Positions 1,057-15,233 are shown, counted from the stretch's first letter. The stretch is 64,000 nucleotides of DNA from Candidatus Poribacteria bacterium (GCA_963665235.2 CAXXLX010000001.1:928001-992000); one strand, 5' to 3'. Numbers and translations: made by a program. The notes: generated by a model from the letters alone, not told the origin.

Positions 1057-2328
1057 CTAACGCGCATCAACGGCATGCCGACTAAACTGTGTCAAATAAT
1101 TACCAATTTTATCTTGAATGCCCCGCGCTTGTGCTGATGAACCGATGTAGTGGCTAATCAAAATGCCGAACGCGAACACCTCACCATCTGCTGTAACAGT
1201 GTAACCAGCGAGTGAGGAGACACCACTCAACGTCCCAGTTTTCGCGCGTAACACCTTTTCCGCGTACATTCCCAGCATCCGATTTTTCAAGGTACCATCA
1301 ACCCCCGCAATTGGGAGCGATGCCAAATACTCCGGTCTCAACGCAAAGTTGTGATAGATATAGACAAGCAACTTTGTGAGCAGGTCAACGTTGAGAAGGT
1401 TATACCGGGAGACCCCAGAGCCGTCAAGGCATCGATGCATCGGGGGGGTATCCATAATTTCACCTAAAAATGCAGTGATAGCTGTTCTCCCCTTTTTCCA
1501 CGTTCCCGGTTCACCGATGACTTCTGCACCGATTGTCTTGAAAAGCAGTTCAGCGATGTAATTGTCACTCGGTTTGTTCATCAATTTAAGAATGTCGGCG
1601 AGGGGCGGCGATAGATGTGTGGCAACACGCTGCGCCGCTGATGGCACTGTGCCGAGGACGACCTCACCTGTCACGTCAACCCCTTTTTGTGTGAGCGTCC
1701 TTTTCAGGAGATGTCCACACGCGAGGGCTCTGCTGCCTGTACTATCATCAGGTTCAATGCTTCGGATGCTCAAGGCACTGAAGTGAAGCGGCCTATCGTC
1801 CCACATCCAGCCCGGCCCCTCTCGAACAGTGTCAAGGTATGTCTCATCAACGACAATGTTGCCCTGGACTGATTTTATGCCGGTGTGAAGCAGTGCATCC
1901 CCCAATTTCACGACATCGTCCGGTTGAAGCACCGGATCGGCGCGGCCTTTGAGATAGACGTTTTCTGCTACCTCCGCGTTCGCTGTAGTATCAACATAAA
2001 CCGTTGTTTCAAACCGATAATCTGAGCCTAGTTTTGCTAAGGCGGTTGCTGCGGTGAGCAGTTTCATCGTAGAGGCGGGATGGTGTAGCTTGTGGATATT
2101 TTTTCCGTAAACCACCTCGCCTGTTTCAACGGAAACAACCTTTATCCCGATGCTTGCTGTTGTGAACAACGCGTCCTGCAAAACCGCGTCAATATCGGCG
2201 TGTAGTTTTTCGAGCGGGTTTGCTATAGCGGTTGGCGGTTGGGTTTCAACCGGTTTCGTCGCGAATATGCCACAACTTGAGAGCAGCAGGACACCACAGA
2301 ATAAAAAGATAGAGAAAGTTTTTATCAT
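1057..2328 (-). CDS. dacB: D-alanyl-D-alanine carboxypeptidase/endopeptidase (PBP4, peptidase S13), lipoprotein
   Basis: PASTMK (SxxK), SDN (SxN) and KTGTL motifs; DGSG motif; lipobox LSSC. Confidence 0.92.
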   Translation of the reverse strand: MIKTFSIFLFCGVLLLSSCGIFATKPVETQPPTAIANPLEKLHADIDAVLQDALFTTASIGIKVVSVETGEVVYGKNIHKLHHPASTMKLLTAATALAKLGSDYRFETTVYVDTTANAEVAENVYLKGRADPVLQPDDVVKLGDALLHTGIKSVQGNIVVDETYLDTVREGPGWMWDDRPLHFSALSIRSIEPDDSTGSRALACGHLLKRTLTQKGVDVTGEVVLGTVPSAAQRVATHLSPPLADILKLMNKPSDNYIAELLFKTIGAEVIGEPGTWKKGRTAITAFLGEIMDTPPMHRCLDGSGVSRYNLLNVDLLTKLLVYIYHNFALRPEYLASLPIAGVDGTLKNRMLGMYAEKVLRAKTGTLSGVSSLAGYTVTADGEVFAFGILISHYIGSSAQARGIQDKIGNYLTQFSRHAVDAR

Positions 2329-2396: not shown

Positions 2397-3158
2397 CTAC
2401 CTACTCGGTAAACCTAAAAATTCGTACGGGTCAATGCCCGCTTCCGCCATATCCACTACCTTAACCTCAGGGGGGATGTCCTTTTCCAAAACTTTACCCT
2501 TTTGTAGTTCAATGTTCCAGAGAATTTTTCCCATGTGAGGATCACCAGTCCTATCGGCGACAGATTTTTCCACCGTACCATCTGGTAGGACGGTCCGCTT
2601 CCATTTGACATAGACCACCCCGGGAAGAGTGGGGTAAATCAGTCCATCGTCCCTCATATTCCCGCCAAGTGCTCGTATTCCCTGTTTCCAAAGTTTGATA
2701 TGGACGCGTATCAGTAGTTCCCCTTCTGCGGTAAGTTCTGAGTGCCAAGCAGTGGCGGGGTAATCCGGATAATCCGGTGGTAACTCTGGATAGGGCCCAA
2801 ACCCATGCGGAGAAACAGGAACCTCCTCGGCGTTGGTTTCTGTTTGCTGTGTCGCCGCAGTAACGGGGCCGGTTTGTTCACCGGTGCGTCCGTCCGTCTC
2901 CGGAACTGCATCGGTTGTGTTGTTTATAGGTTTTTCTGCGGTTGGCGTTGGGCTTTCCATAGGTGCATCGGATATCGCTTGCGTCGTCTCTGCTTTCTGG
3001 GCGCGTTCCGCTTGACGTGGCATTTCCGCATTTTCCGCTGCTTGTTGCTTGTAGGGTGCCAGCTCATGCTGATACCAGAAATAGCAAGCAATACCGAAAA
3101 CAATCAGGAAACAAAAACCGCCTATAACCCACCTGTTTGTGAAATACTCACGTAACAT
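2397..3158 (-). CDS. Membrane-anchored protein A1 (MLREYFTNRW family, C-terminal class I)
   Basis: N-terminal TM helix; GGAGG RBS; C-terminal domain homologous to 4433-5191 (SPxGFGPYPELP...GIDPYxFLxLP). Confidence 0.85.
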   Translation of the reverse strand: MLREYFTNRWVIGGFCFLIVFGIACYFWYQHELAPYKQQAAENAEMPRQAERAQKAETTQAISDAPMESPTPTAEKPINNTTDAVPETDGRTGEQTGPVTAATQQTETNAEEVPVSPHGFGPYPELPPDYPDYPATAWHSELTAEGELLIRVHIKLWKQGIRALGGNMRDDGLIYPTLPGVVYVKWKRTVLPDGTVEKSVADRTGDPHMGKILWNIELQKGKVLEKDIPPEVKVVDMAEAGIDPYEFLGLPSR

Positions 3159-3178
3159 GTTTGTGCCTCCTTTACGTC

Positions 3179-3208
3179 TAAGACGTTAATTTTGTACCAA
3201 AAGCCCAA
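3179..3208 (-). promoter_or_regulatory. Putative ECF sigma promoter upstream of A1
   Basis: TTGGGCTTTTGGTACAAAATTAACGTCTTA; one of four conserved copies, with a CGTC -10-like element. Confidence 0.65.
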
Positions 3209-3689
3209 TAAAAAAATGATTTTTTTGGAAAAAAGGTGCTAATTACAGGAAATGCAGAAGTCTGAAGCAGTTGTTATTGATTCATGATACCAAAAAATGT
3301 AAGAATAAATCAACCCAAAAGCGGCACCGGGGGACCATGATAGACATAGGACGACATAATGTGGCAGTGTGCGTTCTATATCTGGCATCCCCTCTCGGAA
3401 GGTGTTTCTACGGGATGAGGTGAATTGTCAACGGCAGCAGAAGGCTTTTGAAGGAAAAGGCATGGCGGGGACGGCGGGTGTGGGCGAAAAGAAACAGGCA
3501 GGTAACGCGATGGAGAAAGAGGCATCTGTGATAAGGGACACAGATGCCCCTGGTATCACTGCAATTGAAGCATCAGTAGGCTATATGACTACATAAACGC
3601 ACATTATGAAATCTTTGATTTTTCATATTGCGCGTCTTTGGTGGTCTGAGACGACAGACAGCATCGTCATCATCGTCACCTTTGTTACT

Positions 3690-4421
3690 CTAATCCGCAT
3701 CTCCCTCATGCGCTTTATTATGTTCTGTGGGGTCGGGGAAATTCCACGCATTTGCATAAGCCTTGTTGGACAGAGCAGGACGGTACTTGTCTACTAAAAC
3801 CCATTTGGGATAAGGATCGTAATAAGACGGATCCCAAGGTTTGGGTGCAATATCAGGATTAATAGGGTCGACCTTTATCCACTCCTGCCAATTTTTTTCA
3901 GGACTGGCTCCGTTGATATCGCCCCATGCAGTGCATTGGGATAAATCCGTGTCTGCTTGTATATCTGCCCAACTTCCGTATCGGGCTTTGTCAGCAGCTG
4001 CCCATTCTTCATCGTTCTCAGCTAGACTTATGCTATCCTCTGCTTTTACCTTTCTCTTTACGTATCCAGCCCACGTTTCACGTGGTTCGTGATCTTCATC
4101 ATTAGGCACCCAGGCGTAGCACTCGTACTCGCCTTCGTAATCATCGATGTCCCGCGCATCTCCTAATACTTTGGCATACGCCTCATATTCTATACCGTAG
4201 CCGTTAAAGAATGCATCGATGGCGTTTCGTATGCCACGTTCTCCGGGATACTCTATATTCACGTCAATGTAGGCTTCGGCGGATAAGACACCATCGGCAT
4301 CGATTGAGGTGCATTTTCCCTAATGCTGTTTCACGTTTCTCTTTTGTTGATCCGCCAAAAGCACAGTGGCAGAGCTCCCTATCATCACAAAAATGAGTGT
4401 GTAAATTATAAAACGTTTCAT
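3690..4421 (-). pseudogene. Secreted partner B2 with an in-frame TAG at codon 34 (and a possible second read-through TAG at 3690-3692)
   Basis: GGAGG RBS plus ATG at 4421 gives signal peptide MKRFIIYTLIFVMIGSSATVLLA. TAG at 4320-4322 is followed in the same frame by GKCTSIDADGV..., running into the 190-aa ORF. Confidence 0.75.
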
Positions 4422-4432
4422 AATCATCCTCC

Positions 4433-5191
4433 CTATTTGGGTAAATCAAGGAAGGTATAGGGGTCTATACCACCCTCTTCATAAGGTATCAGTTTGATAC
4501 CGGGAAAGTCAGACGCTGTGACACTTTCACGCCGTCGTTTCTTTTCTTGTTCGATTGTTTCCATATCATCATCGGGATGTCCGAGCACATCGCGTAGATA
4601 ACGTCTGCCTCTGGATGTCTCGCCCCATCTTACATAGCAGACCCCTTTGATGATAGGGTATACCAAGCCATTGCTCATAACAGTTCCTTCTACCGGAACC
4701 CCTTGTTTCAGAAGTTTTATCCTAACACGTATCATCAACTCGGATTCAGCACTCTTGCGTGGCCATGTAATAGGTCCAAATCCTTCGGGTAATTCGGGAT
4801 AGGGTCCGAAACCGTAAGGGGAGATGAGCGCATTTTTAGGAACTGGTATAGGTGGTGGTTTCGGCCCGATATAGATGTCGTCTGTTAGGAAAAACCCTTT
4901 GTCTTCTGTCTCGTTCCTGTTTGTTTCCTCTTGTGAGCCTATATCGGGGTTTCTGTTTTTCTCTGTAGTTGACGTTGTGCTTTCCATAGGTGCATCAGCG
5001 GTCGGTTTCGCATCGCGGTCTGTATCGGATTTTTGGAGGTCCGCTTGGCGTAGCATTTCCGCGGTTTCTGCTTTTGATTGTTCGTAGGGTGCCAGTTCAT
5101 GCTGATACCAGAAATAGCAAGCAATACCGAAAACAGTAAGGAAACAAAAACCACCTATAACCCACCTATTTGTGAAATACTCACGTAACAT
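4433..5191 (-). CDS. Membrane-anchored protein A2 (MLREYFTNRW family, class I)
   Basis: Same N-terminal anchor; class I C-terminal domain shared with A1. Confidence 0.85.
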   Translation of the reverse strand: MLREYFTNRWVIGGFCFLTVFGIACYFWYQHELAPYEQSKAETAEMLRQADLQKSDTDRDAKPTADAPMESTTSTTEKNRNPDIGSQEETNRNETEDKGFFLTDDIYIGPKPPPIPVPKNALISPYGFGPYPELPEGFGPITWPRKSAESELMIRVRIKLLKQGVPVEGTVMSNGLVYPIIKGVCYVRWGETSRGRRYLRDVLGHPDDDMETIEQEKKRRRESVTASDFPGIKLIPYEEGGIDPYTFLDLPK

Positions 5192-5211
5192 TTTGGTTCC
5201 TCCTCTACGCC

Positions 5212-5241
5212 TAAGACGTTAATTTTGTGCCAAAGACCCCA
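5212..5241 (-). promoter_or_regulatory. Putative ECF sigma promoter upstream of A2-B2
   Basis: TGGGGTCTTTGGCACAAAATTAACGTCTTA, identical to the copy upstream of the sigma gene. Confidence 0.7.
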
Positions 5242-5537
5242 TAAAAGATGATTTTTTTTGGAAAAAAGGTGCTAATTACAGGAAATGCAGAAGTCTGAAG
5301 CAGTTGTTATTGGTTCATGATACCAAAAAATGTAAAAATAAATCAACCCAAAAGTGGCACCGTGGTATACATAGGATAGCATTCGGAGAGTGCCCATTAC
5401 CTTTTTAATGTGGCAGCGTGCGTTTTGTCTCTATATCTGGCATCCCTTCGCGGAGCGCGTTGCCACGGGATGAGGCGCATTGTTAATGGCAGCTGAAGAC
5501 TTTTGAAGGAAAAGGCGCGGCGAGTGCAAGTAAAAAG

Positions 5538-5588
5538 AAAAGCAGGTCCCTCCGCTAGCAGGGGAGAGTAAGGGAGGGACTTGCTTTT
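5538..5588 (-). terminator. Rho-independent terminator after B3
   Basis: Stem AAAAGCAGGTCCCTCC...GGAGGGACTTGCTTTT with a U-tract on the minus strand, just downstream of the B3 stop. Confidence 0.6.
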
Positions 5589-5606
5589 GAAATCAATGAT
5601 GGGTTC

Positions 5607-6557
5607 CTAAAAATTAAAATACCACCACTCAGGATGTCCACAAGGACTATTATAACAAATCCATGAAAAACCAGAGGCAATGCAACCGTTTCCATAACAA
5701 ACGTAGGAATGATAATGTGTGCCTGGCACCTCATAACCGTGTCCAGCATCGGCATCGGCAGGACAGAGCGGTACCCGGCTGGTTCCATAAAGACCTATAT
5801 TTGGAACAGCACACTTGGTCCCTGTTGGAAACTCGTCCTCTGAGCGGATCTCAATTGTGAACGATTCAGTTGGTTCTTGGACCACACCGGGAAATCCCTG
5901 GGGTGCAGTGACACTCCCTGCCGCATAATTTAATGAAAAACTAAAACCTGCTCCACCTGCTCCACCGCCTGCACCACCGCCATGTTCCGACACTGCTGCA
6001 CCATACGCCGTTACACTATAGGTAATTGTTTGTGGCTCATCCACTATATAATAACTTGACGCACTACAAGACACAGAACCCGTAGCGTCTCCGCCGTTTT
6101 TTTGATAAATGGTCTTATCGTTCACATCACCAAGATGGTGTGTCCATCCAGCAGTGCTCTCGACTTTTCCCATACATGCAACATGCCCCTTGAAAGAATC
6201 TGCGCGGGTTGCATCAAGACGGCCGGTAGCATAAAAATCCACTTTGACTTTCTTTTTAAAAAACTCCTTGTCTTTATCAGGCAGGAAGTCTTTTGGTTCA
6301 TCAAACGACTCATACTGACCTGTGTCGATATTCTTAAGATACTGATAACCAATATTGTGCCATCGATGAACGGTACCGACAGTTGAATAATTAGAGCCCT
6401 CATCGCGTGTGCCGAACGTATAATAATACCCCGGGGTAACGTCCGTACTGTCACTTATTACGGGCCCAGGGCCGACATCTTGTGATTGTACGTTGTCAAT
6501 AACTATAAATCCTATCATAAAAATGGACAGGGTGAATATCAAAAACTTAAATTTCAT
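5607..6557 (-). CDS. Secreted partner B3 (signal peptide, Gly-rich GGGAG-FSFS segment, Cys-rich tail)
   Basis: Signal peptide MKFKFLIFTLSIFMIGFIV; paralogous to B4 (VGxVxRWxxIGYQxLxNxxTG; WxCYNSPCG). Confidence 0.85.
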   Translation of the reverse strand: MKFKFLIFTLSIFMIGFIVIDNVQSQDVGPGPVISDSTDVTPGYYYTFGTRDEGSNYSTVGTVHRWHNIGYQYLKNIDTGQYESFDEPKDFLPDKDKEFFKKKVKVDFYATGRLDATRADSFKGHVACMGKVESTAGWTHHLGDVNDKTIYQKNGGDATGSVSCSASSYYIVDEPQTITYSVTAYGAAVSEHGGGAGGGAGGAGFSFSLNYAAGSVTAPQGFPGVVQEPTESFTIEIRSEDEFPTGTKCAVPNIGLYGTSRVPLCPADADAGHGYEVPGTHYHSYVCYGNGCIASGFSWICYNSPCGHPEWWYFNF

Positions 6558-6587
6558 CAAAATCTTCGGATTGGAAACCCCCAGCAT

Positions 6588-7616
6588 TTATGCGGGGGAG
6601 GAAAATCCGCCTTTATAGTTGAAGTTCAAGCGTGTTAGCACTTGAAAATCCGTGCGTTTTGCCCCCGTTGTTAATCGGTGTCCATCTTTTGAATAGACAG
6701 AGAATAGTCCTTTAGCATTAACACCCGCAAGGCGTGTTAATCCGTATTTGTTGTGCTTTATTAATGTGTTTTTAACAAGTCCATCGCCTAATAAGGTGCC
6801 ACCATATCGCGGGCGATTGCCACCTTTCTGCGGATTTTGTCTGTGGAGTTGTCGCCTGCGTATCGGTATCGGTGAGATACAGAATATATCGGTATTGTCG
6901 GGTATCTCTAAACCGCCCACGGTGTGATAGGCCAAGCACCAACTATCAACGCAATGTGCCTCAAAGGTTTCAGCTAACTTCTTTGACGACTTGTTGAGAC
7001 CCAGACGCTCGCGTATCTCTTTGGTTTCAAACCCTTGTATCGTCAGGAGTTCCCATCGCTTTTCTACCTCTGAATAGAACCAATGCTTGCCCACTTCCAA
7101 AGGACTGAAGGCCTGATTCCACTGCTTTTGATACTGTTTTGTCCGCGCCTTAATATCCTCAACACAGACGTGTGTAACAGGATAGAGTTTAGACAACCAA
7201 TCTAATATGCGAAGTTTCCAATCCCATCTTGCACGTGTGCCTGCAGGGATACGCTTCCGGTTCGACAGGTTGTGCTGCTTCTTTTTTCGATTCGGGCATT
7301 TCCGTGTGCGTCTGCTTCTCCGCAACGTCCGACGCTTCTCGATTTTCTTTCCAACCTTGTTGTGAGCGTCTGCTTGCACATTTAGGTAGGTATGTGCCTC
7401 GCTCTTGACGGTAAAGCCTTCCTTCTTACTGCCGGGGTCTACGCCTACGCATATCTGTTGGAAGTATCTATCCGAAGGGTCGGCGTTAAGGCGCACACAA
7501 AAAACGCCATTCTTCCAAAACGGTGTGGCTTTCTTGTCTCGTATCCACTTCCTTGCCCGCGAAGGCTTTGTCGGCATCAGTGGATTTTGGTTTTTGTCAA
7601 CGACAGGAACAAACAT
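6588..7616 (-). CDS. isrB: IsrB RNA-guided nickase (RRXRR/PLMP, split RuvC, no HNH), 342 aa
   Basis: PLMPT motif; RuvC-I VGVDPG; Arg-rich bridge helix RRTLRRSRRTRK; RuvC-II VEDI; RuvC-III HCVDS; no HNH between RuvC-II and RuvC-III. Confidence 0.88.
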   Translation of the reverse strand: MFVPVVDKNQNPLMPTKPSRARKWIRDKKATPFWKNGVFCVRLNADPSDRYFQQICVGVDPGSKKEGFTVKSEAHTYLNVQADAHNKVGKKIEKRRTLRRSRRTRKCPNRKKKQHNLSNRKRIPAGTRARWDWKLRILDWLSKLYPVTHVCVEDIKARTKQYQKQWNQAFSPLEVGKHWFYSEVEKRWELLTIQGFETKEIRERLGLNKSSKKLAETFEAHCVDSWCLAYHTVGGLEIPDNTDIFCISPIPIRRRQLHRQNPQKGGNRPRYGGTLLGDGLVKNTLIKHNKYGLTRLAGVNAKGLFSVYSKDGHRLTTGAKRTDFQVLTRLNFNYKGGFSSPA

Positions 7617-7624
7617 AGTTTGTA

Positions 7625-7821
7625 ATTCTCCGTAGAGTTTGTATTTCCCCATCCAGATCGGTATATCAGCGTTTACATCGGACTTGGGGAGCATCCGAAA
7701 CACCTTTGTGCACCACCACAGATATACCGATATATTACTGTAGTGAAGAACTTAATCTTTGACAGGGAACGTGTGGTTACGCTATGTCAAAGCACCCATG
7801 CTTTAGCAGGGTGATCTTTAC
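7625..7821 (-). ncRNA. omega-RNA scaffold of IsrB (boundaries approximate)
   Basis: Structured 5' region upstream of isrB, with hairpin TCGGATGCTCCCCAAGTCCGA and long stem TCGGTATATC...GATATACCGA, typical of IscB/IsrB omega-RNAs. Confidence 0.7.
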
Positions 7822-7885
7822 TTTATTCCTCCTTTGGCACAGGATGCGCCATTTTTTCTCCTGAAAACAGGATATTCTAGCAGAC

Positions 7886-8833
7886 CTATTCTGGCACTCG
7901 CGCGTTAAATAATCTATTTCTCCATTGACGCGAAATTTTTGCGGCTTCTGATTCCCGCTCTATTGTTATGCCGAGTTCTATTTCAATCTCATCAAGGATT
8001 TCCTCAACGACAACGTCAGTACGTCTGAGTGTCCGTTGGGGTGAGCGTGTCGCTGCGTTCAGTGCTTCGCTCATAAGGTGCCTTTCGTTCTCTCTATCCG
8101 CCTCAGTTACCGGCCTGTCGTAATAGACAGAAGACGTGGCTATTGCGGTAGGTCCGTAAGTCTTTTCACGGAGTTCCATATACCATTCTTGTGCCAGCTC
8201 ACAAACTTCGGGAGGATAAGCAAGCATCTGATGTGGGTGTCCCCCGGCAGCAATGAAACTTGCTACAGATTCTTGATTATCTTTAATAAACCCAAGAGCG
8301 GTGTAACGTTCATATTCCGCGTCCGTGAGTTGGTGAAATTGGTTGTATTGGGGCGGTCCCTGTTTCACCTTAATGATAGGCACATTATTTGGGACAAGTT
8401 CCCACACACCTGTCTCTTTATTAAAATCGTGATGGTATCCCTCCGGGGGTGGAGTTAATCCCCGTTCTGCAAAAAATGCGCGCTTTACTGCATCTCGCGT
8501 TGTCTGAGGAAGTTTAGCATACTCCTCTTTGGACAAATTGTATAACGCTTTCCAATTGACGGGCCAGTCCGCATCTTCTGGCCACTCTATCGTGATATCC
8601 TCCAATTTGAGAGGTGTTTTTTCTGCGGTTGGCGTTGTGCTTTCCAAGGGAGCACCGGCGGTCGGTTCCGCTTGGGTGCGTTCCGCTTGGCGTATCAGTT
8701 CTGCGGTTTCTGCTTCTGATTGTTCGTAGGGAGCCAGCTCATGCTGGTACCAGAAATAGCAAGCAATACCGAAAACAATCAGGAAACAAAAACCACCTAT
8801 AACCCACCTATTTGTGAAATACTCACGTAACAT
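7886..8833 (-). CDS. Membrane-anchored protein A3 (MLREYFTNRW family, class II)
   Basis: True start at 8833 (AAGGAG RBS); class II C-terminal domain shared with A4 (PLKLxDITIEWPExADWPVNWK...ILDEIExELGITIERE). Confidence 0.85.
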   Translation of the reverse strand: MLREYFTNRWVIGGFCFLIVFGIACYFWYQHELAPYEQSEAETAELIRQAERTQAEPTAGAPLESTTPTAEKTPLKLEDITIEWPEDADWPVNWKALYNLSKEEYAKLPQTTRDAVKRAFFAERGLTPPPEGYHHDFNKETGVWELVPNNVPIIKVKQGPPQYNQFHQLTDAEYERYTALGFIKDNQESVASFIAAGGHPHQMLAYPPEVCELAQEWYMELREKTYGPTAIATSSVYYDRPVTEADRENERHLMSEALNAATRSPQRTLRRTDVVVEEILDEIEIELGITIERESEAAKISRQWRNRLFNARVPE

Positions 8834-8873
8834 GTTCGTTTCTCCTTTATGCCCGCGCAGGACATATTTGTCA

Positions 8874-9692
8874 TCAAAATTGTCCATTGCTAACACTATT
8901 GGAGCCTGAAGCCGTTTTCTTCTGCCGTGCAATAATTTTCTTCCAACGTGCCATCGCCCGATTTAAGCCCTCCACAACATCCTGCGACGAAACACGTAAA
9001 AATGTAGCAATATCCGCACAAGAAGACAGATCTAACAGATACTGTCCCATCATCGTCCGCTCATCGCCCGGGAGGCGGCTGAGCAAAGATGGCAATTGAC
9101 TTTCGATAGTCTTGACGAGTGTTCTCGTCCGGTTCATTCTATGCTTAACCGATTTTAACGTTGTGTCGGTTAACGCTGCTATCCTCTTTTGCGTCAGGTT
9201 CCCGATATAGTAGAGCTGCATCACCTGCTGGTCCTTGTGTGGAAGCAGACGAATTATGCGTTTTAGCTGGATAGCTTGCTGACGCTGTGCTTCAATTTGC
9301 TGCGCCTGCTTGTGAACTACAAGAGCTGCCGTATCTGCAAGAGGCACAGTATAGGGTTCTCCAGCCGCGTCAACTTCAGCGGGAGATTCGTCTATAGAAA
9401 CCAACGTTATGCGTTTAGCGTGTCGTGCAGCTTTACGCATCCTATCCTTAGCAGTATTCGCGGCGATGGTAAGCAACCAGCCTAAAATATTGTCAACCCG
9501 CCTCAGTTTTTTCATCTTACGGAACGCTTTGGAAAAGGTATCATTCACAACTTCCTCAGCATCTTCATGATTTTTCAAAAGCCTGAATGCGCAGCTGTAA
9601 ACGGCATCGTAATACGTTTGGAATATCAAGTTCAAGGCTGCCTCGTCATCAAGTTCATCCAGTCGCTGAATCCGTTCGGCATTCTTTTTCAT
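8874..9692 (-). CDS. ECF sigma-70 factor with tandem sigma-4 domains
   Basis: Region 2 DAEEVVNDTF...WLLTIAAN; region 4 LPHKDQQVMQLYY..TQKRIA..VKHRMNR; second region-4-like segment LPGDERTMMGQYLL..CADIA..VVEGLNRA. Confidence 0.9.
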   Translation of the reverse strand: MKKNAERIQRLDELDDEAALNLIFQTYYDAVYSCAFRLLKNHEDAEEVVNDTFSKAFRKMKKLRRVDNILGWLLTIAANTAKDRMRKAARHAKRITLVSIDESPAEVDAAGEPYTVPLADTAALVVHKQAQQIEAQRQQAIQLKRIIRLLPHKDQQVMQLYYIGNLTQKRIAALTDTTLKSVKHRMNRTRTLVKTIESQLPSLLSRLPGDERTMMGQYLLDLSSCADIATFLRVSSQDVVEGLNRAMARWKKIIARQKKTASGSNSVSNGQF

Positions 9693-9743
9693 ATCATAAA
9701 CCTCCTACTAAAGAGAAATAACATGAAATGTGCTTATATTCTT

Positions 9744-9773
9744 TAAGACGTTAATTTTGTGCCAAAGACCCCA
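9744..9773 (-). promoter_or_regulatory. Putative autoregulatory ECF promoter of the sigma-A3-B3 operon
   Basis: TGGGGTCTTTGGCACAAAATTAACGTCTTA, about 50 bp upstream of the sigma ATG. Confidence 0.7.
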
Positions 9774-9903
9774 TAAAAAATGATTTTTTGGAAAAAAGGC
9801 GTTAATTGCAAGAAATCCAGAAGTCTGAAGCAGTTGTTATTGCTTTATGATACCAAAAAATGTAAGAATAAATCAACCTAAAAATGGCACCGCTCCGTTT
9901 AAG

Positions 9904-10160
9904 TAATACCAAATTAACACAATTCGTCTCGTTCCACTCTTCCGCTCCAGCGGAGCGTCCGTGAAGACGATGAATCAAATGAAGTTGGTATTAGCCATCC
10001 GGGCGATATGTTTCATGCGCGAAATCCTCTTTTTTCCGCGTTCTCCGCGTTCTCCGCGCCTTCCGCGATTCAGACAATAAACATAAACATACCAAAAACC
10101 TTCCCGTTAGCATCCGACATCACGGTCCGTGAAGACGATGAATCAAATCAATTTGGTATA
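9904..10160. repeat. Two short TACC-ended MITE-like elements (9904-9993, ~10089-10160) flanking a TCCGCGATTCAGACAA repeat
   Basis: TAATACCAA...TTGGTATTA termini; shared GTCCGTGAAGACGATGAATCAAAT; the TCCGCGATTCAGACAA motif also occurs inverted near 29755. Confidence 0.6.
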
Positions 10161-10190
10161 ATACCGTATTTCCAAAAAAAACATTTTTTA

Positions 10191-10220
10191 TGGGGCCTTT
10201 GGCACAAAATTAACGTCTTA
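10191..10220 (+). promoter_or_regulatory. Putative ECF promoter of the divergent A4-B4 unit
   Basis: TGGGGCCTTTGGCACAAAATTAACGTCTTA, one mismatch to the sigma-gene copy. Confidence 0.7.
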
Positions 10221-10286
10221 GGGGTATAAGGACATTTCATGAGCTTCGTATCAATAACGCATCGTAACAGATTTGGAGGTATCAAC

Positions 10287-11261
10287 ATGTTACGTGAATA
10301 TTTTACAAATAGGTGGGTTATAGGTGGATTTTTGTTCCTCATTGTTTTTGGTATTGCCTGCTACTTCTGGTACCAACACGAGCTGGCACCCTATAAACAA
10401 CCGGAAGTGGAATCCGCAGAACTGCTACGCCAATCGGAACGCGCCCAAAAGGCAGAGATAGGGAGTGAGACAGAGCAGGCAGCCGATATACCTATGGAAA
10501 GCGTAACGCCGTCCGCAAAGACAGGCCCTCTCAAATTGGCGGATATCACGATAGAGTGGCCAGAAGGCGCAGACTGGCCCGTCAATTGGAAGGAGTTAGT
10601 CGCGCTGCCACCGGAAGAGTATCATAAACTTCCTGCAGCAACAAGACAGGCAATAGTGAAAGCATACTACGCGGAACATGGACTTGAGAGACCACCAGCA
10701 GGGTTCCACTACAGACTAAATAGTAAGACAGGTGCGTGGGACCTCCATCCGAACAATAAACCCATCATAACAATTCATTGGAAAGGAAACTCATACGGAC
10801 AGCTACACCAACTCACGGATGAAGAATATGAGCGGTATAAGGCGTTGGAAAGAATTGCCACAAACCCTGAGTCTGTCGCATCACACCTCGAAAGAGGTGG
10901 CCGTCCAAGTCAGTACCTAGCCTATCCGCTTGCGGCATGCAATTTGGCACAGAAATGGTTCGACGTGCTCCACGAAAAAACGCGCGGTCCCGCGCCGAGT
11001 GCTACCTCGGGTGCCTTTTACGATAGGGAATATACAGAATCCGATAGGGAAAGGGACCACCGTTTAATACGCGAAGCTATAGACGCGGTGACCCCGCCTC
11101 CTCGGGATGGCAGCGTCGATGAGACGGTTCTGAATCAAATCCTTGATGAAATCGAGGCAGAACTTGGAATCACAATAGAACGGGAAACCCAAGCTGAAAA
11201 GTTTTCTCGTCGACATTTCGAGCAAATATTAAACTCACTCGAATCGTGGGAAGATAGGTAG
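10287..11261 (+). CDS. Membrane-anchored protein A4 (MLREYFTNRW family, class II)
   Basis: GGAGG RBS before ATG 10287; class II C-terminal domain. Confidence 0.85.
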   Translation: MLREYFTNRWVIGGFLFLIVFGIACYFWYQHELAPYKQPEVESAELLRQSERAQKAEIGSETEQAADIPMESVTPSAKTGPLKLADITIEWPEGADWPVNWKELVALPPEEYHKLPAATRQAIVKAYYAEHGLERPPAGFHYRLNSKTGAWDLHPNNKPIITIHWKGNSYGQLHQLTDEEYERYKALERIATNPESVASHLERGGRPSQYLAYPLAACNLAQKWFDVLHEKTRGPAPSATSGAFYDREYTESDRERDHRLIREAIDAVTPPPRDGSVDETVLNQILDEIEAELGITIERETQAEKFSRRHFEQILNSLESWEDR

Positions 11262-11314
11262 ATAAGTAACTCCCTTCTCCCCCCCCGAGCTCCGAAAGGA
11301 ATAGGAGAAAAAAG

Positions 11315-12140
11315 ATGAAAACACAGATATCAATCATTTTGTTAGTTGTACTTTTACTGTTACCGCAAGCAAGCACTGCGAACGGCGACAACACAACCCA
11401 AACGAATCAGGAATTGACAACGACAGCCAATATCCGTTTAAACTCTACAAATAGAACTGTCGGTGAGGTGAAGCGATGGAGAGATATTGGGTATCAATCT
11501 CTGATGAACCTAAACACCGGAGAGACCGAAAGATTCGAAGAATACCCAAAGGCCATATATCCATCGACGGTAAAGTGGTACGACAAGGAGGTAAAGGTTT
11601 ATGCAGTTATTGAAGCCACTTTTAAACCCGTACGGAGCGTAGCCTTCCGGGCGGATGCCCGTGTCGACGGTAGAGTCACATCGGACGATAGTCCTCAGAC
11701 GATTAACGAACCACTTACGGGAGTGGATCACGCTATGTCCGATATTCTTTGGATTCAGACATCTCTTGGGCCTCGATATAGCGCACGAGGCCATACCGCA
11801 ACAGCGGTAGCCACTGCCACCTCAAAAACATACACCTTGAAGAAACCGATGACCGTGTCTGTCTACGCAGATGGACAGGGAGATGCAGTTCCGGGTACGG
11901 GTGGCGGTTTCTCGTTTAGCATCCCTATCTACAAGGATCGCGACCTCAGTCTGGGAATTCTGCATCTGCAACTTGTATAATTACGCCTGTGGGAATGCAG
12001 GAAATCCTGCTTGTTTTTGCGGTTCAGGTCCACCAAAATATACGTTCGCCGAAAGGTGGGTTTGTTACAACAGTCCTTGTGGACCCCGGGCTGTCGCAAA
12101 TCATCACGCGTTGCTTCGATGGTATTACCCTATTATGTGA
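11315..12140 (+). CDS. Secreted partner B4; Cys-rich tail is in another frame (frameshift or deletion near 11950-11980)
   Basis: Signal peptide; homology to B3 in 11315-11980; the homologous WVCYNSPCG tail lies in ORF 11871-12140. Confidence 0.75.
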
Positions 12141-12160
12141 AAAGGAACACTGTCTTTTCA

Positions 12161-12200
12161 AAAAGCAGGTATCCTTACGGGGTACCTGCTTATTTTTTTA
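12161..12200 (+). terminator. Rho-independent terminator after B4
   Basis: AAGCAGGTATCC-TTAC-GGGGTACCTGCTT followed by a T-run. Confidence 0.75.
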
Positions 12201-12493: not shown

Positions 12494-13303
12494 ATGCAAC
12501 GTACCTCTCCAAAGTTTTTCACTGGCATAGGGTGTCTCTTCGGTGTCCTAACAATCTTAGTCATGCTTGGTGGGACATCGCCAACAGATGCGGCAGTCGA
12601 TAAAAACACCGTTGCGGTTTGGCTTTTTGAGGAAGGGGATGGAAAGACAGTAAAAGACGCTTCCGGGAATGGACACAGCGGCGAATTTTCTGGTAACCTC
12701 AAATGGGTACGGGCGAAATTTGGAACGGGGTTAGAATTCCCCGGGGATGGCAGCGGCTACATCGTTGTGGACTCCACTAAAAAATTGGAGCTGGACACCC
12801 TGAGCATCGAGGCGTGGGTCAAAGTCAAAGAGTCTACAGGCAAATGGCAAGGGATTGTCTGCAAACAGCAGGCGGGATGTACCAACCGAAACTACGGCAT
12901 TTGGGTGCAAGTCGATAAGCGGGTGCTGCATGCCGAAATGGGTGCAAATGGCGGCTGTGCATTTAACATAGATGGCACTACGGAAATTACCGACAACAAA
13001 TGGCATCATCTCGCCTTTACCTTTGATGGAAAAATGGGGCGAGTTTACGTTGATGGCGAGTTGGAAACGGAAAAACCTAACACCAATTCGTTTCAGAGCA
13101 ACGACCCAATTACTATCGGTGTCCCGAATATTGACAATCAGAACGGTTTGTCGGGGGTTATTGAAGAGATACGTATCTCCAACGTTGCACGCACCCAAGC
13201 GGAAATTAAGAGTGCTATGAATGTCGGTTTAGCCACAATTCTGAGCGTTGACCCCGCTAGCAAACTTGCAACCCGCTGGGGATACCTCAAACGCGGCATA
13301 TAA
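12494..13303 (+). CDS. LamG/ConA-like jelly-roll domain secreted protein
   Basis: VWLFEEGDG..DASGNG, SIEAWVK and WHHLAFTFDG..VYVDG motifs; C-terminal VDPASKLATRWGYLK. Confidence 0.9.
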   Translation: MQRTSPKFFTGIGCLFGVLTILVMLGGTSPTDAAVDKNTVAVWLFEEGDGKTVKDASGNGHSGEFSGNLKWVRAKFGTGLEFPGDGSGYIVVDSTKKLELDTLSIEAWVKVKESTGKWQGIVCKQQAGCTNRNYGIWVQVDKRVLHAEMGANGGCAFNIDGTTEITDNKWHHLAFTFDGKMGRVYVDGELETEKPNTNSFQSNDPITIGVPNIDNQNGLSGVIEEIRISNVARTQAEIKSAMNVGLATILSVDPASKLATRWGYLKRGI

Positions 13304-14603: not shown

Positions 14604-15233
14604 ATCGCGTGCACAGCACGCTCCTACAGAAGAGAACGGTTGAAAAACATCGCGTGCACAGCACGCTCCTACAGAAGAGAACGGTTGAAAAACATCGCGT
14701 GCACAGCACGCTCCTACAGAAGAGAACGGTTGAAAAACATCGCGTGCACAGCACGCTCCTACAGAAGAGAACGGTTGAAAAACATCGCGTGCACAGCACG
14801 CTCCTACAGAAGAGAACGGTTGAAAAACATCGCGTGCACAGCACGCTCCTACAGAAGAGAACGGTTGAAAAACATCGCGTGCACAGCACGCTCCTACAGA
14901 AGAGAACGGTTGAAAAACATCGCGTGCACAGCACGCTCCTACAGAAGAGAACGGTTGAAAAACATCGCGTGCACAGCACGCTCCTACAGAAGAGAACGGT
15001 TGAAAAACATCGCGTGCACAGCACGCTCCTACAGAAGAGAACGGTTGAAAAACATCGCGTGCACAGCACGCTCCTACAGAAGAGAACGGTTGAAAAACAT
15101 CGCGTGCACAGCACGCTCCTACAGAAGAGAACGGTTGAAAAACATCGCGTGCACAGCACGCTCCTACAGAAGAGAACGGTTGAAAAACATCGCGTGCACA
15201 GCACGCTCCTACAGAAGAGAACGGTTGAAAAAC
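14604..15233. repeat. Tandem repeat, 14 x 45 bp, GTAG-REP-like unit
   Basis: Perfect unit ATCGCGTGCACAGCACGCTCCTACAGAAGAGAACGGTTGAAAAAC; the reverse strand reads GTAG-GA-GCGTGC-TGT-GCACGC (hairpin). Confidence 0.95.

Follow-up and report, generated by a model that had tools for sequence, protein, structure and literature searches.

Paired membrane-anchored and secreted proteins in Candidatus Poribacteria: a candidate two-gene module and its possible control by a local sigma factor

What could be the role of four genes that begin with almost the same membrane anchor, end in one of two different domains, and lie among genes for secreted proteins and next to the gene of a sigma factor? This question is raised by positions 2397 to 12200 of a 64,000-nucleotide stretch of DNA from Candidatus Poribacteria bacterium (GCA_963665235.2, CAXXLX010000001.1:928001-992000), which is called here the window; the host genome amounts to ~5.3 Mb in four contigs. 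Poribacteria are abundant uncultured symbionts of sponges, and for most of the genes specific to their lineage no role is known. We designate the anchored proteins of this locus A1 to A4 and the secreted ones B2 to B4, after the A genes that they accompany; the sigma factor is of the extracytoplasmic function (ECF) type. We propose, with a probability of roughly one half, that the locus comprises four units of a two-gene module of the Poribacteria, in which A tethers B and which the local sigma factor activates together.

According to this proposal, A would sit in the inner membrane and present a binding domain on a long flexible tether, and B, encoded directly behind A and on the same transcript, would be exported by the Sec pathway. 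In the periplasm, the ectodomain of A would grip the N-terminal module of its own B, mainly by a beta-strand segment around a conserved Trp residue, and would tether, escort or mask B on the periplasmic side of the inner membrane. The type of partner would depend on the variable face of A, the C-terminal parts of B would be interchangeable payloads, and in this particular locus the sigma factor would switch on itself and all four units.

The A proteins

The four A genes had been predicted from the DNA to share a near-invariant N-terminal anchor of 36 amino acids, and this is the case: 35-36 of the 36 residues are identical, with A1 equal to A3 over the whole anchor, and A2 and A4 differing from them at one position each (in A3 and A4 the true start is the internal codon of MLREYF). 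The hydrophobic helix begins at residue 10 and leaves ~9 residues on the cytoplasmic side; it is followed by a linker of ~60-90 residues, helical at first and then disordered, and by one of two C-terminal domains. A1 and A2 carry the class I domain (50% identity between the proteins over 251 residues, E 3e-57), and A3 and A4 the class II domain (59% identity, E 2.5e-115); the two classes never matched each other in any search, in agreement with the original prediction, which had considered them unrelated. We infer that A is a single-pass membrane protein with its N-terminus inside and the class I or class II domain facing outward.

The same prediction envisaged a constant promoter-plus-anchor block with divergent 3' parts, and the identity between the units at the level of DNA is indeed sharply bounded. 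The block extends at 85-97% identity from about -170 (in A1, A2 and the sigma gene) or about -85 (in A4) to about +130, beyond which the identity drops to ~45-60%, i.e. near the level of unrelated sequences in the same gapped global alignment; the sigma gene possesses only the upstream part of the block. It appears that the promoter-plus-anchor block has been kept ~85-97% identical through duplication or gene conversion while the ectodomains differ.

A and B had been described as members of no recognized family, and neither A1-A4 nor B2, B3 and B4 have a match in Pfam or NCBIfam, as is also true for ten more A-variant and B proteins from other genomes searched against the same collections; the ESM Atlas yielded no usable match for the class I or the class II domain. 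The close protein relatives of the window come from metagenome-assembled genomes (MAGs) of Candidatus Poribacteria. A word-indexed search returned 332 relatives of A2, all but one of them unnamed or "hypothetical", and a profile of the class I domain collected 566 representatives at 50% identity. Of 151 genomes sampled from the phylum, 116 possess this domain, the copy number in a single genome reaching at least 18, and all of them belong to three families (f1-f3) of one order, where it occurs in 85 of 99, 9 of 10 and 21 of 26 genomes, respectively (the window's own genome left out); it was found in none of the 15 genomes from six other families of the phylum. When 185,579 species genomes were scanned with a pattern, 363 hits were confirmed, the best 80 of which are made up of 76 Poribacteria records and four records of "uncultured bacterium", these four from one MAG. 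To judge by these searches, the A/B module is seen only in Poribacteria, and it ranks among the larger private gene families of this phylum. In the library searched, we found no paper joining Poribacteria with ECF sigma factors or polymorphic toxins, and none of the listed papers that join Poribacteria with sigma factors deals with the A/B family, to judge by their titles and the openings of their abstracts.

In the following, G000 denotes the window's own genome, and L-numbered loci are the regions used for comparison (L009 from the own genome; L070, L090 and the like from other genomes). G000 contains 13 open reading frames (ORFs) with the anchor, namely nine of class I, two of class II, one with another C-terminal part and one fragment; the class I domain is encoded by 12 ORFs of this genome, in three cases behind other N-termini. 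More generally, the class I domain also forms the C-terminus of proteins that have a signal peptide or are of the lipoprotein type and contain TPR, WD40, C-type lectin or redoxin parts, and in L070 the form with a TPR-lipoprotein has a B gene behind it as well.

A model of full-length A2 consists of a helix at residues 9-57 (the membrane segment and its extension), a disordered stretch at residues 58-98 and a confident C-terminal domain. A fold search with this model retrieved only long-helix look-alikes, and the ectodomain was modeled alone instead. The isolated class I domain (~135 residues, alpha+beta, from an alignment of 39 sequences) was predicted with a predicted local distance difference test score (pLDDT) of 94 and a predicted template modeling score (pTM) of 0.85; it is composed of an extended N-terminal segment with an invariant SPxGFGPYP motif, a helix, a four-stranded sheet, another helix, and, at the C-terminus, a short strand with turns. 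A Foldseek search gave no match at E <= 0.001, and the VIA scan of 48,161 chains gave a best Z-score of 2.5, to VirB8 and cystatin-like alpha+beta folds, compared with the usual best Z of 7-8 that this tool assigns to models without a clear Foldseek match. On the basis of these negative searches, which do not amount to proof of a new fold, the modeled class I domain is of no recognized fold.

Pairing with B and the predicted contact

The idea that A and the downstream B form a pair was put forward for this locus alone, and such pairs recur in many Poribacteria genomes. Ten fetched regions, chosen for clustered A genes, contain A-B-A-B arrays, in which a signal-peptide gene repeatedly comes only a few bases after A; the largest array has seven A genes, A and B lie close together (in typical cases 5-25 nt apart), and the gene after B is either the next A gene or an unrelated one. 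The broader set comprised 80 class I loci, 78 of them scorable (one lacks a full A ORF and one is cut by the end of a contig). We regarded A as paired if an ORF with a signal-peptide-like start, recognized by a crude rule, was located between -60 and +100 nt from the stop codon of A, and by this measure 37 of the 78 class I genes are paired. Pairing is common, not universal, and orphans like A1 are frequent; in the tree of class I domains, the nearest relative of A1 in another genome does have a B gene behind it.

It had been set beforehand as a check whether the A classes are random with respect to the downstream gene across genomes. They are not: the class of A tracks the N-terminal module of B. 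The B2-type module was detected in 21 of 71 class I-linked and in 0 of 21 class II-linked downstream ORFs (the 71 include some duplicates from overlapping loci, and the 21 are those found behind 25 class II-type proteins), and the reverse distribution was observed for the "ADIRALAAVPNP" module, with which 14 of the 21 class II-linked and 0 of the 71 class I-linked ORFs start. In a tree built from 56 class I domains, those with a B2-type partner, 19 in number, all belong to a single clade comprising 34 rows (support 85/88, not starred), and the label of the partner changes 22 times on this tree, compared with a mean of 29.9 after shuffling (0 of 200 shuffles were as low). Since A and B are inherited together, which inflates both the tree and the co-occurrence signal, these numbers indicate non-random association and not co-evolution.

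The B proteins are overall very diverse across the loci and have a modular structure. They combine a conserved N-terminal module with variable C-terminal parts of 0 to ~350 residues. The module of the B2 type, ~100 residues long, precedes C-terminal parts that differ greatly in length in the 21 downstream ORFs that have it, and some of the C-terminal modules are common to B proteins from class I and class II loci. Within the window, sequence searches agree with the earlier view that the class II A genes go with homologous B3 and B4 (35% identity over 143 residues, E 1e-9), to which B2 is unrelated. Relatives of B3 are scarce: only four proteins were found among 5.8 billion clusters, one of them being B3 of the window itself, none was found with a B3 query in 150 other genomes of the phylum, and scans of species genomes and metagenomes gave no confirmed relative. 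The lengths of the contigs hint that two relatives of B3 lie on contigs that carry class I A genes. C-terminal aromatic ends (IPW, VPF), considered as an outer-membrane beta-signal, are present in B of only 8 of 56 pairs, and Pro at position -2 is atypical for such a signal.

Modeling of an A-B complex, suggested earlier as a check, was carried out for one cognate pair, the A2 ectodomain with B2, of which the part after the stop codon (see below) was used; both chains were given as alignments. The prediction obtained a high score: the interaction prediction score from aligned errors (ipSAE) was 0.86, 0.86 and 0.84 compared with 0.01 for the best control, the runs agree in at least 91% of the contacts, and the pLDDT of the partner is at least 75. 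In the calibration of the tool, 58 of 80 solved complexes attained this mark, as did 2 of 110 mismatched pairs, proportions that hold only roughly here, because our own alignments were used. In the predicted complex, strands one and four and one helix face of A contact residues 81-98 of B2, around a nearly invariant Trp; the SPxGFGPYP motif takes no part in this contact. Across paralogs, sequence variability is higher at the 36 positions of A predicted to form the interface than at its remaining 95 (column entropy of 2.56 versus 1.49 bits, Mann-Whitney p 2e-7), as calculated from raw columns that were not corrected for surface exposure. In view of this variable contact surface, each paralog therefore probably recognizes its own kind of B. 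Taken together, these models and the occurrence of the class I domain in signal-peptide and lipoprotein-type proteins point to a partner-binding module working outside the cytoplasm, and we consider binding of A to B the rather probable case.

The opposite possibility is that A and B are merely co-transcribed envelope proteins that make no contact with each other. The many A genes that lack a B and the great diversity of B would be easily explained in this way. However, the complex prediction with its clean controls, the linkage of the A class to the B module, and the short gaps between the genes argue against it, and we regard it as improbable. Even if A and B turned out to be plain structural proteins of the envelope, this would still provide an annotation for several hundred "hypothetical" clusters.

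If contact is accepted, one may ask whether B is a secreted weapon or a host-directed effector with an active, variable C-terminus, and A an immunity or escort protein that holds B until export. There is a certain resemblance to MafA-MafB-MafI of Neisseria, CDI (contact-dependent inhibition), Rhs and similar polymorphic toxin loci: the gene of a membrane-associated protein precedes that of a protein with a Sec signal, a constant N-terminal module and variable C-terminal parts, the family is present in many copies, with arrays and orphan genes, and there are signs of recombination, with 3' parts swapped behind a constant 5' block. Binding via a hypervariable surface of A would also be in line with such a function, and the frequent decay of B fits genes that are costly or driven by conflict. 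On the other hand, A and B have no sequence or family match to the components of polymorphic toxin loci, no known trafficking domain or secretion-system gene was found nearby, and a Pfam scan of 13 B proteins (B2, B3, the two fragments of B4, eight B proteins from other genomes and the class II-linked B of L009) revealed no toxin, peptidase or nuclease family. Besides, there is no third gene downstream that could encode immunity, A is the conserved partner, and its predicted contact is with the constant N-terminal module of B and not with the variable end, which is the reverse of what is seen for immunity proteins. The effector/immunity option offered by the original prediction has no direct support, and we consider an effector role of B, with A as its guard, unlikely.

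The architecture of A resembles that of TonB and TolA: the membrane helix at the N-terminus is conserved, the linker is long and flexible, and the C-terminal domain is small and predicted to hold a beta-strand of the partner. Unlike TonB, A1-A4 have no match to TonB_C (PF03544) or to any other Pfam family at E <= 0.1, and the partners are soluble secreted proteins encoded next door rather than outer-membrane transporters. None of the fold matches listed for the class I domain is a TonB or TolA chain, which is no proof against such a fold.

It is tempting to extend the proposed binding of B by A to the whole phylum and to consider an undescribed, Poribacteria-specific and Sec-dependent "tether and cargo" system, in which a hypervariable A of a new fold would capture a modular B and release it or hand it on, new pairs would be formed by cassette recombination downstream of the constant promoter and anchor, some of them would be controlled by an ECF factor, and the function would lie in the interaction with the sponge host or in competition. 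We offer this wider scenario tentatively, as one that may well turn out to be wrong. The family appears worth studying in any case, as it faces the envelope and combines a confidently modeled, unmatched fold with a variable predicted binding face and, in some loci, a sigma factor of its own. If both binding and sigma control are true, it would provide a testable case of a symbiont that diversifies its envelope and secreted proteins by cassette swapping, and a new recognition domain.

The shared upstream element and the sigma factor

All transcription units, including that of the sigma factor, had been claimed to share one promoter of 30 bp. A shared element does precede A1, A2, the sigma-A3 operon and A4; it comprises 26 bases. 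Its copies differ from one another by no more than two mismatches, and at up to six mismatches it occurs only four times in the 5.3-Mb genome, always upstream of A1, A2, the sigma gene or A4. The stretch common to all four units, A4 included, is 58 nt long and ends with CGTCTTA, located 24 nt before the ATG start codon in A1 and A2. A3 starts 40 nt past the stop codon of the sigma gene, with its own AAGGAG ribosome-binding site and without a copy of the shared element, and therefore sigma and A3 are taken to form one operon, which included B3 before the insertion described in the next section.

The ORF at 8874-9692 matches Sigma70_r2 (PF04542, E 2.2e-14) and Sigma70_r4_2 (PF08281, E 2.6e-10), with no region 3 family listed, and scores 81.8 bits against the cut-off of 42.9 with TIGR02937; by these matches it is a sigma-70 factor of the ECF type (group 4). 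As a single element, unique in the genome, is common to all units and to the sigma gene, the sigma factor probably drives its own expression along with that of the four units, and the ECF-like -10 word that also stands before the sigma gene fits self-activation and a small regulon. The arrangement is not restricted to the window. In L070, an orthologous sigma gene with the same C-terminal extension lies before an A-B pair and is preceded by ACGTCATTA, with 12 of the 22 preceding bases alike (by eye). The order sigma-A-B recurs in L070, L062 and L072, the order sigma-(small membrane protein)-class II A-B is found in L090 and L098, and in L081 the sigma gene lies just after a class II A. Taking these sequence features together with the contrary ones discussed below, we see the chances of ECF control of this locus as evenly balanced.

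The C-terminal 75 residues of the sigma factor (window 8874-9110) contain, by eye, a second helix-turn-helix resembling region 4; this stretch is conserved in the L070 ortholog, where the gene is represented by two ORFs. Long sigma proteins are found elsewhere in G000, too: among 44 matches listed, at least 14 ORFs of ~740-1060 residues start with an ECF sigma domain (e.g. C1:3190577-3193573 and C1:2930632-2933655) and represent sigma factors fused to long C-terminal parts.

ECF operons with a membrane and a periplasmic partner are exemplified by RpoE-RseA-RseB and CnrH-CnrY-CnrX, and the locus resembles them in the succession of genes for a sigma factor, a single-pass membrane protein and a periplasmic protein, as well as in the same promoter-like element before sigma and its presumed targets. 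This raises the possibility that A takes over the role of a classical anti-sigma factor, e.g. via its membrane helix, with B serving in the periplasm as its ligand or as a co-sensor. Indeed, A3 occupies the usual position of an anti-sigma gene, the locus offers no other candidate, the sigma-A-B order recurs in other genomes, and the anchor helix is more strongly conserved than one would expect if it did no more than anchor the protein. However, ~9 cytoplasmic residues are too few for an anti-sigma domain, which would be expected to take up at least ~50 residues before the membrane helix, and neither A3 nor the other A proteins match an anti-sigma family in Pfam or NCBIfam; we found no cognate anti-sigma factor beside the sigma gene. 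Most A genes have no sigma gene nearby, and arrays of up to seven A genes look like regulated output rather than sensors. Moreover, the sigma factor may be regulated by its own extension of ~75 residues, as in the ECF41/42 type, which has a regulatory C-terminal extension and no anti-sigma factor. A better candidate is present in the class II operons of other genomes, in which the ECF sigma gene and A are separated by the gene of a small Cys-rich membrane protein: the proteins encoded at L090:960-1184, L098:2240-2470 and L091:2405-2656 consist of 74-83 residues, with one membrane helix, a Cys-rich tail and no Pfam match, and represent candidate minimal anti-sigma factors. Regulation of sigma by A is in our opinion quite improbable, the least probable of the alternatives considered here. 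Aside from generic modularity, the A/B module shows none of the testable defining features of ECF operons, polymorphic toxins or TonB, and we place it outside these known kinds.

The more serious alternative concerns the element itself, which may not be read by the local ECF factor but be a sigma-54 or other promoter, or a mere passenger in segmental duplications, so that the units would be co-regulated otherwise or not at all. The conserved block of 150-300 nt in A1, A2 and the sigma gene also holds a sigma-70-like TTGATT-18-TATCAT site, which fits plain duplication, and the 26-base element of the window was not found at up to five mismatches in the loci of other genomes. With respect to sigma-54, the consensus is TGGCAC-N5-TTGC, with GG at -24 and GC at -12. 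The genome contains rpoN, and the core of the element reads TGGCAC, the -24 word, in three of the four copies; A1 has TGGTAC, though, the -12 word is TAAC instead of TTGC in all four copies, and no gene of an enhancer-binding activator is present in the locus. Against a passenger role, only the 58-nt stretch is common to all four units, and selection seems to act there; the resemblance of the sequence before the L070 sigma gene points in the same direction, as does self-activation, which is the usual habit of ECF sigma factors. We think that a promoter independent of the local sigma factor, or no functional element at all, is a minor possibility, albeit one to be reckoned with.

Several observations weigh against the combined picture of binding and sigma control. 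Concerning the element, in addition to its sigma-54-like core, the -35 region is not the usual GGAAC of ECF promoters. Concerning the sigma factor, within the short flanks fetched around each locus a sigma gene is seldom found next to A (3 of 39 other class I loci, 0 of 79 loci of the broader class I set and 3 of 24 class II loci). Concerning the pairs, an adjacent ORF is lacking for 29 of the 78 class I genes that could be scored, and for another 12 it is present but was not recognized as a signal-peptide gene by the crude rule; with so many unpaired genes A need not act only with its neighbor. The evidence for binding is model confidence for one cognate pair, whose B2 is itself broken in this genome, and two of the three B genes of the window (B2 and B4) are probably dead; to this, the joint inheritance of A and B and the uncorrected entropy contrast must be added. 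Finally, the anchor itself may be read differently. A loose lipobox pattern, after PROSITE PS51257, fits 48 of 61 distinct N-termini of A, and the anchor has Cys in 40 of 46 aligned sequences (Ser or Phe in the other six; class II relatives with other anchors have no Cys), and hence some A proteins may be lipoproteins rather than signal-anchored.

Coordinates, gene decay and the insertion sequence

Table 1. Features of the locus and its immediate neighbor (window coordinates)
Feature	Position	Strand	Remarks
Peptidase_S13 D-Ala-D-Ala carboxypeptidase gene	1057-2328		first gene downstream of A1, after a 68-nt gap
A1	2397-3158	-	anchor, linker and class I ectodomain; orphan
Shared promoter-like element, A1 copy	3178-3203	-	2 mismatches to the A4 copy
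B2	3690-4421	-	signal peptide and acidic Trp-rich body; in-frame TAG at 4320-4322
A2	4433-5191	-	anchor, linker and class I ectodomain
Shared promoter-like element, A2 copy	5211-5236	-	1 mismatch to the A4 copy
B3	5607-6557	-	signal peptide, Gly-rich middle, Cys-rich tail
Insertion sequence with IsrB-like gene	~6553-7822	-	ORF 6588-7703, probable start near 7616
A3	7886-8833	-	anchor, linker and class II ectodomain
ECF-type sigma factor	8874-9692	-	272 amino acids; regions 2 and 4, C-terminal extension of ~75 residues
Shared promoter-like element, sigma-A3 operon copy	9743-9768	-	2 mismatches to the A4 copy
Shared promoter-like element, A4 copy	10196-10221	+	reference copy
A4	10287-11261	+	anchor, linker and class II ectodomain
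B4	11315-12140	+	B3 homolog in two frames, 11315-11980 and 11871-12140
Terminator-like hairpin	12163-12191	+	13 pairs and a T run; closes the A4-B4 unit

The locus is decaying: A1 lacks a B gene, B2 contains a stop codon, B4 a frameshift, and an insertion sequence separates A3 from B3. That A1 is an orphan had been noticed at the outset and agrees with the carboxypeptidase gene found next to it (Table 1). The companion statement, that A2, A3 and A4 each directly precede a signal-peptide gene, is correct for A2 and A4 (with B4 broken) and has to be given up for A3, from which B3 is removed by the insertion of 1.27 kb. In B2, codon 34, just past the signal peptide, has changed from TGG to TAG; reading TAG as a sense codon was rejected, since intact orthologs align across this position and carry Trp (TGG) there. 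B4 is ~55 residues short in comparison with the B3 family, with the Cys-rich tail in the other frame, and is probably a pseudogene. Contigs from public runs are identical to the window over B2 (X1 and X3, no differences at 3286-5120) and show no gap over the B4 frameshift (X3, 10092-12200); these runs may include the source sample of the genome, which makes them weak as independent support for the two lesions.

The insertion sequence is no part of the A/B system. It occupies the place between the ribosome-binding site of the former A3-B3 junction and the start codon of B3, and the B3 frame stays open upstream for another 10 codons (to 6587), which reach into the end of the element; there, an in-frame ATG comes immediately after the stop codon of the IsrB-like gene and adds 10 residues to B3. 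The product of the gene matches RRXRR (PF14239) with 113.1 bits (cut-off 25) and guided_IscB (NF040563) with 93.2 bits, below the cut-off of 175 and over model positions 3-165 of 314, and the Pfam scan listed no HNH family; the partial match and the lack of HNH fit the HNH-less IsrB form and not IscB. Upstream of this gene, a weak match to HEARO, the omega RNA of IscB (RF02033 of Rfam, at 7641-7821 on the minus strand; 25.8 bits, E 0.064, far under the gathering score of 83) begins exactly at the left end of the element. With the RRXRR domain, the partial match to guided_IscB, the weak HEARO match at the left end and multiple copies, it resembles the IsrB/IscB elements of the IS200/IS605 type (OMEGA, obligate mobile element-guided activity), from which it differs by the lack of a transposase gene inside.

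Seven full copies with 95-100% identity are present in the genome, among them the one in the window and one at G000 C1:672969-674253, and two copies lie between an A gene and its B. The left flank is a ribosome-binding site, and the right end of the copies examined reads ...TTGATGAA, followed directly by the remaining coding sequence of a gene, which in several cases encodes a signal peptide; judging from these junctions, the element apparently inserts itself behind the ribosome-binding site and ahead of an ATGAA start codon.

A4 and three distant A paralogs have in common a 5' leader of ~50 bases (AGCTTCGTATCAAT...CATAACAGATTTGGAGGTATCAACATG), which is absent in A1 and A2 and may be a conserved untranslated leader; it is found at 10231-10289 in the window and approximately at C1:330385-330440, C1:3982497-3982560 and C1:3632350-3632405 in G000. 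The region 9904-10159, between the divergent promoters of the sigma gene and A4, contains three copies of a word of ~25 bases, namely an inverted pair (9904-9928 and 9969-9993) and a direct copy (10137-10159), with a CCGCG-rich segment between them. At ~10034-10077, the summed depth of the public-run contigs is ~650-730, compared with ~23 in the flanks. These features suggest a small repeat of very high copy number or a miniature inverted-repeat transposable element, or possibly operator sites.

Further downstream, a Laminin_G_3 protein (12494-13303, plus strand) ends with ...KLATRWGYLKRGI, and tails like this one (KLAIRWAQLKRIH, KLVTTWSKLKRAE) are found at the end of other exported proteins that adjoin A paralogs elsewhere in G000. 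A perfect tandem array of 14 units of 45 bases (100% matches), with several frames open, extends at 14604-15233 between two genes of the beta-lactamase family.

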